A stretch of 64,000 nt of DNA from Escherichia coli (lineage in GTDB: Bacteria > Pseudomonadota > Gammaproteobacteria > Enterobacterales > Enterobacteriaceae). Of the stretch, positions 6,151 through 51,316 are shown in pieces. The stretch lies in NCBI RefSeq assembly GCF_003334405.1, contig NZ_QOWM01000001.1. One strand, given 5' to 3'. The position numbers and the translations under genes are program-made. Within the stretch, counting starts at the first letter, position 1; the number at the start of each line of letters is the position of its first letter. Below the pieces are notes generated by a model, which did no database searches, was not told the origin of the DNA, and saw only the letters and a program-made list of their open reading frames with translations.

Positions 6151-7620
6151 ATGGTTTCCGAAACTAAAACCACAGAAGCGCCGGGCTTACGCCGTGAATT
6201 AAAGGCGCGTCACCTGACGATGATTGCCATTGGCGGTTCCATCGGTACAGGTCTTTTTGTTGCCTCTGGCGCAACGATTTCTCAGGCAGGTCCGGGCGGG
6301 GCATTGCTCTCGTATATGCTGATTGGCCTGATGGTTTACTTCCTGATGACCAGTCTCGGTGAACTGGCTGCATATATGCCGGTTTCCGGTTCGTTTGCCA
6401 CTTACGGTCAGAACTATGTTGAAGAAGGCTTTGGCTTCGCGCTGGGCTGGAACTACTGGTACAACTGGGCGGTGACTATCGCCGTTGACCTGGTTGCAGC
6501 TCAGCTGGTCATGAGCTGGTGGTTCCCGGATACACCGGGCTGGATCTGGAGTGCGTTGTTCCTCGGCGTTATCTTCCTGCTGAACTACATCTCAGTTCGT
6601 GGCTTTGGTGAAGCGGAATACTGGTTCTCACTGATCAAAGTCACGACAGTTATTGTCTTTATCATCGTTGGCGTGCTGATGATTATCGGTATCTTCAAAG
6701 GCGCGCAGCCTGCGGGCTGGAGCAACTGGACAATCGGCGAAGCGCCGTTTGCTGGTGGTTTTGCGGCGATGATCGGCGTAGCTATGATTGTCGGCTTCTC
6801 TTTCCAGGGAACCGAGCTGATCGGTATTGCTGCAGGCGAGTCCGAAGATCCGGCGAAAAACATTCCACGCGCGGTACGTCAGGTGTTCTGGCGAATCCTG
6901 TTGTTCTATGTGTTCGCGATCCTGATTATCAGCCTGATTATTCCGTACACCGATCCGAGCCTGCTGCGTAACGATGTTAAAGACATCAGCGTTAGTCCGT
7001 TCACCCTGGTGTTCCAGCACGCGGGTCTGCTCTCTGCGGCGGCGGTGATGAACGCAGTTATTCTGACGGCGGTGCTGTCAGCGGGTAACTCCGGTATGTA
7101 TGCGTCTACTCGTATGCTGTACACCCTGGCGTGTGACGGTAAAGCGCCGCGCATTTTCGCTAAACTGTCGCGTGGTGGCGTGCCGCGTAATGCGCTGTAT
7201 GCGACGACGGTGATTGCCGGTCTGTGCTTCCTGACCTCCATGTTTGGCAACCAGACGGTATACCTGTGGCTGCTGAACACCTCCGGGATGACGGGTTTTA
7301 TCGCCTGGCTGGGGATTGCCATTAGCCACTATCGCTTCCGTCGCGGTTACGTATTGCAGGGACACGACATTAACGATCTGCCGTACCGTTCAGGTTTCTT
7401 CCCACTGGGGCCGATCTTCGCATTCATTCTGTGTCTGATTATCACTTTGGGCCAGAACTACGAAGCGTTCCTGAAAGATACTATTGACTGGGGCGGCGTA
7501 GCGGCAACGTATATTGGTATCCCGCTGTTCCTGATTATTTGGTTCGGCTACAAGCTGATTAAAGGAACTCACTTCGTACGCTACAGCGAAATGAAGTTCC
7601 CGCAGAACGATAAGAAATAA
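6151..7620 (+). CDS. lysP: lysine-specific permease LysP (APC family)
   Basis: 489-aa ORF MVSETKTTEAPGLRRELKARHLTMIAIGG... Confidence 0.95.
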   Translation: MVSETKTTEAPGLRRELKARHLTMIAIGGSIGTGLFVASGATISQAGPGGALLSYMLIGLMVYFLMTSLGELAAYMPVSGSFATYGQNYVEEGFGFALGWNYWYNWAVTIAVDLVAAQLVMSWWFPDTPGWIWSALFLGVIFLLNYISVRGFGEAEYWFSLIKVTTVIVFIIVGVLMIIGIFKGAQPAGWSNWTIGEAPFAGGFAAMIGVAMIVGFSFQGTELIGIAAGESEDPAKNIPRAVRQVFWRILLFYVFAILIISLIIPYTDPSLLRNDVKDISVSPFTLVFQHAGLLSAAAVMNAVILTAVLSAGNSGMYASTRMLYTLACDGKAPRIFAKLSRGGVPRNALYATTVIAGLCFLTSMFGNQTVYLWLLNTSGMTGFIAWLGIAISHYRFRRGYVLQGHDINDLPYRSGFFPLGPIFAFILCLIITLGQNYEAFLKDTIDWGGVAATYIGIPLFLIIWFGYKLIKGTHFVRYSEMKFPQNDKK

Positions 7621-7641
7621 GTTTCCTCCCTTCCTTGCTAA

Positions 7642-7667
7642 GCCCTCTCAACCGAGAGGGCTTTTTC
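7642..7667 (+). terminator. Rho-independent terminator of lysP
   Basis: hairpin gccctctc-aacc-gagagggc followed by ttttt immediately after the lysP stop. Confidence 0.7.
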
Positions 7668-7718
7668 AATTCCATTTCCCTGACAAATCATGCGGATATA
7701 AAATTTAACATTTGGATT

Positions 7719-7743
7719 GATAATTGTTATCGTTTGCATTATC
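7719..7743 (+). promoter_or_regulatory. putative Fur box in the cirA promoter region
   Basis: gataattgttatcgtttgcattatc resembles the Fur consensus GATAATGATAATCATTATC, about 170-195 nt upstream of the cirA ATG. Confidence 0.5.
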
Positions 7744-7913
7744 GTTACGCCGCAATCAAAAAAGGCTGACAAATCAGAGGCTGTTCCGGCTTTCTGGGAT
7801 GATCACCTGCATAAAAAATAAGTCCACCGCGATGCTGCCGTACGCAAGGGGACGTGAAGAAGATGTGAGCGATAACCCATTTTATTTTCGTAGTTACCTC
7901 ATGGAGATATGGA

Positions 7914-9905
7914 ATGTTTAGGTTGAACCCTTTCGTACGGGTCGGGCTGTGTTTGTCCGCTATTTCTTGTGCATGGCCTGTGTTAGCGGTCGATGATGAT
8001 GGCGAAACGATGGTTGTCACTGCATCTTCCGTGGAACAAAATCTTAAAGATGCACCTGCCAGTATCAGCGTCATTACCCAGGAAGACCTGCAGCGAAAAC
8101 CGGTACAGAATCTGAAGGATGTCCTCAAAGAAGTGCCTGGCGTACAACTGACGAACGAAGGGGATAACCGTAAGGGCGTTAGTATTCGTGGTCTGGACAG
8201 CAGCTATACCCTGATTCTCGTCGACGGTAAACGCGTGAACTCCCGCAATGCCGTCTTCCGCCACAATGATTTCGATCTGAACTGGATCCCGGTCGATTCC
8301 ATCGAACGTATTGAAGTGGTCCGTGGCCCGATGTCGTCGCTGTACGGTTCCGATGCGCTCGGCGGTGTAGTGAATATCATCACCAAAAAAATCGGTCAGA
8401 AATGGTCGGGTACCGTTACCGTCGATACCACCATTCAGGAACATCGCGATCGCGGTGACACCTATAACGGTCAGTTCTTTACCAGTGGACCATTAATTGA
8501 TGGTGTGCTGGGAATGAAAGCTTACGGCAGCCTGGCAAAACGTGAAAAGGATGACCCGCAAAACTCAACGACCACCGATACCGGAGAAACGCCGCGTATT
8601 GAAGGATTCTCCAGCCGCGACGGCAATGTCGAATTTGCCTGGACACCGAATCAAAATCACGATTTTACTGCCGGATACGGTTTCGACCGTCAGGATCGTG
8701 ATTCCGACTCGCTGGACAAAAACCGCCTGGAACGCCAGAACTACTCCGTCAGCCATAATGGGTGTTGGGATTACGGCACCAGCGAACTGAAATACTACGG
8801 TGAGAAAGTCGAGAACAAAAACCCTGGCAACAGCAGCCCGATAACTTCCGAAAGCAATACGGTCGACGGCAAATACACGTTGCCGCTGACGGCGATTAAT
8901 CAGTTTCTCACGGTTGGCGGTGAATGGCGTCACGACAAACTTAGCGATGCGGTGAACCTGACCGGGGGAACCAGCTCCAAAACGTCTGCCAGCCAGTACG
9001 CGCTGTTTGTGGAAGATGAATGGCGGATCTTCGAGCCGCTGGCGCTGACGACCGGCGTGCGTATGGACGATCACGAAACCTACGGTGAACACTGGAGTCC
9101 GCGTGCCTACCTGGTTTATAACGCCACCGACACCGTAACGGTGAAAGGGGGCTGGGCGACGGCATTTAAAGCACCTTCTCTGTTGCAACTTAGCCCTGAC
9201 TGGACGAGCAATTCCTGCCGTGGCGCATGTAAGATTGTGGGTAGCCCGGATCTGAAACCAGAAACCAGCGAAAGTTGGGAGCTGGGGCTTTACTACATGG
9301 GTGAAGAAGGCTGGCTGGAAGGGGTTGAATCCAGCGTTACCGTTTTCCGTAACGATGTGAAAGATCGTATCAGCATCAGCCGTACGTCTGACGTCAACGC
9401 TGCACCGGGCTACCAAAACTTTGTTGGTTTTGAGACGGGCGCTAACGGACGGCGCATACCGGTATTTAGCTACTACAACGTTAACAAAGCTCGTATTCAG
9501 GGCGTGGAAACCGAACTGAAAATTCCGTTCAACGATGAATGGAAACTGTCGATCAACTACACCTACAACGATGGTCGTGATGTCAGCAACGGCGAAAACA
9601 AACCGCTATCCGATCTGCCGTTCCATACTGCTAACGGTACGCTGGACTGGAAACCGCTGGCGCTGGAAGACTGGTCATTCTATGTTTCTGGGCACTATAC
9701 CGGGCAGAAACGCGCCGACAGCGCGACGGCTAAAACACCGGGCGGTTATACCATCTGGAATACCGGCGCGGCCTGGCAGGTGACTAAAGACGTCAAACTG
9801 CGCGCAGGCGTGCTGAACCTTGGCGACAAGGATCTCAGTCGTGACGACTACAGCTATAACGAAGACGGACGTCGTTACTTTATGGCAGTGGATTATCGCT
9901 TCTGA
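7914..9905 (+). CDS. cirA: TonB-dependent catecholate siderophore / colicin I receptor CirA
   Basis: 663-aa ORF with signal peptide and TonB-dependent receptor sequence. Confidence 0.95.
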
Positions 9906-10806: not shown

Positions 10807-11030
10807 TCATCATACCGTTTATTCAATGTGCTGTGAGTAACTTTCACTTCCGTATTTGCATAACGATGTTTTAACATCTGCTGATGAAAGGCAGCGGCAA
10901 TTACAATAATTATCGCTGTGAATACTGGATTATGTGCGCCGCCTCACGCACAATAATCAGGCTGTAAATCAGCTTAATAACTTTGCCCCCACGCAGGGCG
11001 GAGGCGTCACACCTGCAGGAGAAATCATAA

Positions 11031-50133: not shown

Positions 50134-50241
50134 ATATTCATCCCTGAAATGTATTAATGAAATAAACGATATTTTACGCGCAATAAATGTTTGGCGCATT
50201 AGTTGTTTGAGCGAAAAATATCTGGAAAGCAGATCACAGTA

Positions 50242-50327
50242 AATAAAAAAACCTGCTGGTGAGGCAGGTTCTTTTATTTACTATTTTCAGGCCTAACACC
50301 ACAGCCTGTGCAACATCGTGTTCCAAC
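50242..50327 (-). ncRNA. putative Orz-type antitoxin sRNA, copy 1
   Basis: minus-strand promoter (-35 ttgcaa 50357-62, -10 tataat as plus attata 50334-39), ~85-nt transcript ending at hairpin 50250-50270 plus U-run; 5' end complementary to zor-1 5' UTR (50474-50493). Confidence 0.5.
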
Positions 50328-50565
50328 GAACGAATTATAACCATGGCTGGACCCCGTTGCAATTAAGATAATGAGATTTATAATCCAGACCGTTGGGACG
50401 TTGCGCCGGATCGAACCTATTTCAAGTCCTGGCTACCGGACGGGTGGTGCTGCAGGTGGTGCCCTGATCCGGAGTGCAACATCGTGGTCCAACATACGTA
50501 AACCAGTATCGACAGGCAGTGTAAGGGTAAGGTGCTGGTGTTGCGCTCCTTAATAAGGAGAGCGG

Positions 50566-50655
50566 ATGGACACGCTGACACAAAAGTTAACCGTGCTCAT
50601 TGCTGTACTGGAGCTATTAGTAGCTCTGTTACAGTTGATTGATTTGTTGAAGTAA
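50566..50655 (+). CDS. 29-aa Zor-like type I toxin peptide (MDTLTQKLTVLIAVLELLVALLQLIDLLK), copy 1
   Basis: SD aggag 6 nt upstream; plus promoter -35 50357-62 and -10 tataat 50379-84 gives a ~175-nt 5' UTR; terminator hairpin 50679-50701. Confidence 0.7.
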   Translation: MDTLTQKLTVLIAVLELLVALLQLIDLLK

Positions 50656-50851
50656 CGGGCAAATTGAAACGCATCTAAGGGGGAAAACCGCTTCCCCCTT
50701 TAATAAAATGATTACTGTTTTTATTAATTCATCATATAACTCATGTTTATTTATAAGTTCATCGATTTTATATTCAACGCACCATTTGACCGGGATGTGA
50801 ATATTTATGGTGGGCTATTGGCAAAAAATATCTGGAAAGTAGATCGCAGAA

Positions 50852-50935
50852 AATAAAAAAACCTGCTGGTGAGGCAGGTTCTTTTATTTACTACAGTGAC
50901 GCTAACTTGCTGATTGTGCAACATTTCGTACCAAC
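50852..50935 (-). ncRNA. putative Orz-type antitoxin sRNA, copy 2
   Basis: same architecture as copy 1 (-10 as plus attata 50942-47, -35 ttgcaa 50965-70, terminator 50860-50880); 18-nt stretch gcaacatttcgtaccaac matches zor-2 5' UTR at 17 of 18 positions. Confidence 0.5.
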
Positions 50936-51173
50936 GAATAAATTATAACCATATCCACACTCCATTGCAATTCAGTGAATGAGATTTATAATCCTGCCCG
51001 TTGGGAGGTTGTGCCGGATCGGACCAATTTTAAGTCCTGGCTGCTGGACGGGTGGTGCCGCAGGCGGTGCCCTGATCCGGAGAGCAACGTTTCGTACCAA
51101 CATACGTAAACCAGTATCGACAGGCAGTGTAAGGGTAAGGTGCTGGTGTTGCGCTCCTTAATAAGGAGAGCGG

Positions 51174-51263
51174 ATGGACACGCTGACACAAAAGTTAATC
51201 GTGCTCATTGCCGTACTGGAGTTATTAGTGGCTCTGTTACGGTTGATTGATTTGTTGAAGTAA
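51174..51263 (+). CDS. 29-aa Zor-like type I toxin peptide (MDTLTQKLIVLIAVLELLVALLRLIDLLK), copy 2
   Basis: SD aggag 6 nt upstream; -10 tataat 50987-92; terminator hairpin 51287-51309. Confidence 0.7.
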   Translation: MDTLTQKLIVLIAVLELLVALLRLIDLLK

Positions 51264-51316
51264 CGGGCAAATTGAAACGCATCTAAGGGGGAATACCGTT
51301 TCCCCCTTTAATAAAG

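Follow-up and report, generated by a model that had tools for sequence, protein, structure and literature searches.

The spacer between lysP and cirA in Escherichia coli raises a simple question: how far from the cirA start codon is iron control exerted, and what occupies the RNA that lies between promoter and start codon? In the window (the whole 64-kb stretch of DNA that was analysed), lysP lies at 6151-7620 on the + strand, and 293 bp of spacer separate it from a 663-codon ORF at 7914-9905 (+). This ORF carries the cirA annotation in 5,426 of 5,426 complete E. coli genomes, with lysP and cirA as the flanking genes (megablast of 7600-7930).

7914-9905, + strand: cirA coding sequence, for a 663-aa catecholate siderophore and colicin Ia/Ib receptor

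CirA takes up catecholate siderophores, and colicins Ia and Ib and microcin V enter the cell through it, as do siderophore-conjugated antibiotics such as cefiderocol. The expression level of cirA sets sensitivity to these agents because CirA is their entry gate, and layered control by Fur, by RyhB with Hfq, and by OmrA/B explains how the level of CirA is tuned.

The lysP-cirA spacer is 100% identical to that of E. coli K-12 MG1655 (window position w equals NC_000913.3 coordinate 2246769 + (7914 - w)), and experiments performed in K-12 therefore transfer to it base for base. There is no difference from the K-12 cirA promoter-operator in this region, and the footprint, the p1 and p2 promoters and the 173- and 160-nt leaders, in the form in which later papers report them, map straight onto the window. 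This identity covers the cis sequence, not strain-specific trans factors such as Esr41, and the host strain departs from K-12 elsewhere in the window, where a zor-orz locus is present. The p1 and p2 start sites, the Fur footprint and the Hfq mechanism are taken here from papers that cite Griggs 1987 and 1989 and Salvail 2013.

The region is almost certainly the native regulatory region of E. coli cirA, made up of a Fur operator, the promoters p1 and p2, a long leader and an sRNA hub. The Fur site, the long leader and the sRNA control are already published, textbook biology, and no new biology is added here; a long regulated leader of this kind is correctly inferable from raw sequence.

Promoters and the length of the leader

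Two cirA promoters, p1 and p2, are reported to give untranslated leaders of 173 and 160 nt, respectively (Griggs, Tharp & Konisky 1987, as cited by Guillier & Gottesman 2008, PMC2588501), so that the start sites fall at ~7741 (p1) and ~7754 (p2). The nucleotide at 7741 is an A, 8 nt past the -10 hexamer, and that at 7754 is likewise an A. A promoter consensus scan of a 600-bp region returned 4 sites against 1.0 expected, and two overlapping promoter-like sites found by scanning sit in exact register with the leader lengths quoted in PMC2588501. The hexamers of these two sites would belong to p1 and p2. The unusually long 5' UTR supposed in the initial annotation, which had been made from the sequence alone, agrees with the published 173- and 160-nt leaders as that paper gives them.

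7705-7733, + strand: promoter p1, with -35 TTAACA (7705-7710), a 17-nt spacer and -10 TATCGT (7728-7733), from the promoter scan and the cited leader length
7717-7745, + strand: promoter p2, with -35 TTGATA (7717-7722), a 17-nt spacer and -10 TATCGT (7740-7745), from the promoter scan and the cited leader length
7741-7913, + strand: cirA 5' untranslated leader, 173 nt from p1 and 160 nt from p2, as cited in PMC2588501
7640-7669, + strand: lysP intrinsic terminator, a 10-bp stem followed by a T run, from a terminator scan and the end of the lysP ORF at 7620

The terminator lies upstream of both cirA promoters and parts lysP from them. In strains 0H15-0H26 and 2021CK-01361, the lysP 3' end with its stop region is duplicated in tandem (59 bp) directly before the terminator (in E. 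coli 0H26, L084:33-91, matching window ~7582-7640), and the cirA promoter and leader remain unaltered. The promoters are also flanked by an exact 11-nt direct repeat, CTGACAAATCA, with one copy 5' of them (7680-7690) and the other early in the leader (7766-7776); the window has no third copy. In E. albertii and Salmonella the 5' copy is not kept, and the repeat is probably due to chance.

The leader and its control sites

Conservation of the leader was examined by scanning one genome per species, which gave 80 cirA loci, 76 of them with an aligned ATG. Leader lengths inferred by homology in other Enterobacteriaceae range from 78 to 199 nt, excluding the locus L069, in which the sole Fur-like match is at -397. 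Two short blocks near the start codon recur in most loci: TGTGAG, the complement of the RyhB core GCUCACA, occurs no more than 80 nt upstream of the ATG in 64 of the 76 loci, mostly at about -50, and CTCATGGAG, which spans the OmrA/B and ribosome-binding block, is found at -16 in 72 of the 76. The ~30-nt spacer that separates TGTGAG from CTCATGGAG is 45% T (60 loci). The middle of the leader varies freely between genera, with no reliable alignment.

7851-7874, + strand: RyhB pairing site, whose core GAUGUGAGCGAU pairs with RyhB nt 41-52, from the duplex scan and published mutations
7880-7888, + strand: U-rich tract UUUUAUUUU, directly 5' of the ribosome-binding site, a candidate Hfq site
7895-7906, + strand: OmrA/B pairing site, -19 to -10, UACCUCAUGG, overlapping the Shine-Dalgarno GGAG at 7903-7906
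7765-7860, + strand: central leader, -149 to -54, dispensable for OmrA/B control, variable and indel-rich between genera (13-genus alignment)

The sequences of RyhB and OmrA/B used in duplex scans were those of the K-12 annotation, and full-length RNA duplex folding, which gave meaningless long-loop duplexes, was replaced by a scan in 24-nt windows. The best RyhB duplex on the leader joins 7851-7874 (about -63 to -40) to RyhB nt 40-62 at -22.1 kcal/mol, and nt 1-11 of OmrA/B pair with 7894-7905. Set against shuffled leaders, the RyhB and OmrA/B duplex energies (24/100, 56/100 and 36/100) are not better on their own, and the predictions count only because they coincide with published mutations and conserved blocks. 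There is thus seed complementarity for both sRNA inputs at sites conserved across genera, and sRNA target prediction, which had been suggested as a check on the leader, returns these two sites at energies no better than those of shuffles.

Direct pairing of RyhB with cirA was confirmed by compensatory mutations, a compensatory ryhB allele restoring control (Wang et al. 2015, PMC4666370). The mutagenic oligonucleotide JW5381 changes TGTG to GTAT (PMC4666370 supplement; also Fig. S3), and the tract that it alters is the TGTG at window 7864-7867, which falls within the independently found best RyhB duplex. As summarised in PMC5006887, Salvail 2013 reported that Hfq binds a translational enhancer in cirA and blocks translation, and that RyhB pairs upstream, restructures the cirA 5' UTR and prevents Hfq binding, so that translation is turned on. 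The U-rich tract at 7880-7888 is likely to be this Hfq-bound enhancer. The suggestion that a long leader offers room for control by iron-responsive sRNAs is therefore borne out by RyhB pairing in the cirA 5' UTR as described in PMC5006887 and PMC4666370. A second RyhB-activated target, the shiA mRNA, likewise has a 5' UTR in which RyhB pairing antagonises Hfq-dependent repression, although it is another gene with another leader sequence.

Two other candidates in the leader were set aside. The Hfq distal-face (ARN)n motif in the A-rich CUGCAUAAAAAAUAAG was rejected, as runs of at least 3 repeats are equally common in shuffles and the position is not conserved. A CRP site at 7864 (2 mismatches) was considered as the cause of the conservation; its second half-site is not conserved, its position is >100 nt 3' of both transcription starts, and it falls on the RyhB pairing site.

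OmrA and OmrB pair with cirA at -19 to -10, as established by compensatory mutations, and repress it with RNase E-dependent decay (PMC2588501). In the same study, the deletion delta1 (-149 to -54) left OmrA/B control largely intact and changed basal expression little, and Guillier & Gottesman suggested that additional post-transcriptional control might act through the central leader. The EHEC-specific sRNA Esr41 represses cirA by a factor of 7.6, with resistance to colicins Ia and Ib as the outcome (Waters et al. 2017, PMC5286369). The leader in the window has the same pairing sequences, UGUGAGC at about -50 and UACCUCAUGG at -19 to -10, as the known cirA 5' UTR target of RyhB/Hfq, OmrA/OmrB and Esr41.

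The central ~95 nt of the leader would be a largely unconstrained spacer. An alternative, which we regard as rather unlikely, is that the central leader could hold sites for lineage-specific regulators; given the same low credence is a separate proposal, that a long-range GUGAG-CUCAU helix might form which RyhB and OmrA/B compete to open. Within the RyhB site, the invariant GUGAG at 7865-7869 has its complement in the likewise invariant CUCAU at 7898-7902, which is in the OmrA/B site and abuts the Shine-Dalgarno, and RNAalifold pairs the two (5 bp) in 24 genera, with no covariation and at only -1.4 kcal/mol. If the helix were true, the two sRNA inputs would be mechanistically coupled.

Far less probable is direct signal sensing by the long leader itself, folded as a cis-regulatory RNA such as a riboswitch, thermosensor or attenuator. 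The length of the leader and the RNAalifold pairing beside the Shine-Dalgarno are what such a reading would draw on, but the leader fold is not more stable than shuffles (z = 0.21), the weak GUGAG-CUCAU helix is without covariation, and the central 95 nt are variable, are deletable with little effect on basal expression, and belong to leaders whose length differs by genus (78-199 nt). No Rfam match was found in the leader at E <= 1, the only two hits being sub-threshold chance matches that both lie over the lysP terminator; neither a covariance model match nor a covarying structure of the kind that marks curated cis-regulatory leader RNAs was thus found.

We consider it equally improbable that translation of a small upstream ORF controls cirA. 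Two such ORFs exist mechanically, one of 40 codons that starts at the ATG at 7799 and ends at a TAG overlapping cirA codons 2-3, and one of 6 codons that starts at 7901; in addition, GGAA at -3 to +1 may be a competing Shine-Dalgarno (PMC2588501). Against this, a properly spaced Shine-Dalgarno is lacking in front of 7799, Salmonella has neither the ATG at -115 nor that at -82, a TTC as codon 2 always removes the TAG, and indels in the region have lengths that three does not divide. Neither the ORF from 7799 nor that from 7832 has a Shine-Dalgarno ahead of it, and conservation of both fails already in Salmonella.

The Fur operator

The 15-bp 7-1-7 Fur motif (TGATAATNATTATCA) matches TGATAATTGTTATCG at 7718-7732 with 2 mismatches, 182-196 nt 5' of the cirA ATG at 7914, and a perfect ATTATC hexamer follows at 7738-7743, 3' of the 7-1-7 match. 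The Fur-like sequence extends from -196 to -171 relative to the cirA ATG, where the initial annotation had placed a Fur-box-like site ~170-195 nt before the start codon, and the region therefore has a Fur box by both the 7-1-7 and hexamer models. A Fur motif scan, in the manner of the check proposed at the same time, puts the joint-best site of the 64-kb window at 7718-7732 and finds no 7-1-7 match with <=3 mismatches between 7733 and the cirA ATG. These models were needed for detection since the strict 19-bp Fur consensus has no match at <=3 mismatches anywhere in the 64-kb window, its best match having 5 mismatches (6 on the + strand). The 64 kb hold two 7-1-7 sites at the 2-mismatch level, where shuffles predict 0.24, and by motif statistics alone the cirA Fur site is only moderately significant. 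We take it as real because of the published footprint and because of its conservation in 65 of 76 orthologous loci.

The footprint evidence is available through Chen et al. 2007 (PMC2189734), who give the cir DNase I footprint of Griggs & Konisky 1989 as NC_000913.2 2244957-2244999, and who list the cir Fur cluster as three overlapping sites of 20.7 bits, centred at -189 from the start codon and marked 'F' for footprinted. The centre, 2244980, minus 189 gives a start codon at 2244791, and the footprint as quoted there therefore spans -208 to -166, or 7706-7748 in the window.

7706-7748, no strand assigned: Fur operator, the DNase I footprint reported in PMC2189734 mapped to the window, holding the 7-1-7 core (7718-7732) and ATTATC (7738-7743)

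Mapped in this way, the footprint spans the -35 and -10 hexamers of both p1 and p2 as well as the p1 start at 7741, and its 3' edge stops 6 nt short of the p2 start at 7754. A footprint placed over both promoters' hexamers and the p1 start is the usual layout for repression by occlusion. A start site near the ATG with the Fur site lying outside the promoter would have spoken for a different architecture; the starts and the footprint, as cited, instead lie far upstream and on the promoters, respectively.

Across the orthologous loci, a Fur-box match (<=3 mismatches) is found at -101 to -222 in 65 of 76, and none is nearer than -101; alignment of 13 genera also reveals an invariant AATTGATAA..TTAT block in the operator. 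Judged from these comparisons, the cirA region appears to consist of a conserved promoter-operator and a conserved 65-nt hub by the start codon, with a free-running spacer between them. In Kluyvera, Leclercia and Pseudocitrobacter (L009, L017, L063 and others), a perfect TTGACA is present ~25 nt 5' of the Fur box, at a position taken by GCGGAT in E. coli; this hints at another or an extra promoter arrangement in those genera.

The possibility that AT-rich sequence produced the Fur-like match by chance, and that the true promoter and operator lie near the ATG with a short leader, could call on the modest motif statistics, on the presence of another 2-mismatch site in the window and on a 19-bp consensus with at least 5 mismatches, but it is the least probable of all and is already refuted by the start-site and footprint data as cited, the footprint covering exactly the 7718-7732 site and the mapped promoters giving 160- and 173-nt leaders, while no Fur-like site occurs from 7733 to the ATG and the site is conserved at -101 or beyond in 65 of 76 orthologous loci.

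The preferred reading, of a Fur operator that overlaps the cirA promoters, places cirA with fhuA, fepA, entC, fecI and exbB, in which the Fur box likewise overlaps the promoter and gives repression when iron is available. The Fur clusters of these five genes are 25-93 nt 5' of the start codon, whereas that of cir is at -189 (PMC2189734 table); this difference is due to the long leader, and cir is a distance outlier among the classical Fur targets in that table. Metal-dependent Fur binding and iron-repressed transcription of cirA come from the literature (PMC2189734, PMC4676285), and Beauchene et al. 2015 (PMC4676285) report Fur bound upstream of cirA, its regulation by Fur, and a rise in its expression with RyhB.

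The published working of the region, and other features of the window

With iron present, Fe2+-Fur on the operator at 7706-7748, just upstream of the p2 start, covers the hexamers of the two overlapping sigma-70 promoters and the p1 start and so blocks transcription, as published. With iron absent, transcription proceeds from ~7741 (p1) and ~7754 (p2) and yields the 173- and 160-nt leaders described in the papers cited above, of which the last ~65 nt serve as a hub of post-transcriptional control, a role that is likewise published. Hfq near the ribosome-binding site represses cirA translation there, in the published account summarised in PMC5006887. RyhB, being itself Fur-repressed, appears under the same iron-starvation signal as cirA; at the conserved UGUGAGC block just upstream, according to the same summary of published work, it restructures the RNA, displaces Hfq and activates translation. 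OmrA/B, made under EnvZ-OmpR control, act over -19 to -10, blocking the ribosome-binding site and triggering RNase E decay, and in EHEC Esr41 represses cirA, both effects being published.

The sole other 2-mismatch 7-1-7 Fur match in the window, TAATAATTATTCTCA at 20806-20820, is located in the yeiS-preT (yeiT) spacer ~160 nt before preT, and corresponds to the 'yeiT -163' Fur cluster, an untested prediction of Chen et al. 2007 (PMC2189734). A 3-mismatch Fur-like candidate, TTACAATAATTATCG, is present at 10901-10915 in the divergent folE-yeiG spacer. A Fur-like 19-mer at 50367 lies inside a tandem repeat at 50211-51282 and is probably due to chance.

The repeat unit at 50211-51282 is 608 bp, and this segment is not colinear with K-12; it contains the following features.

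50245-50320 and 50855-50928, - strand: Rfam OrzO-P antitoxin RNAs, 99.9 and 88.8 bits
50566-50655 and 51174-51263, + strand: ZorO-like toxin ORFs of 29 aa each, within the 608-bp repeat

From its sequence, the segment is a zorO-orzO / zorP-orzP type I toxin-antitoxin pair, and its lack of colinearity with K-12 marks the strain as a different one.
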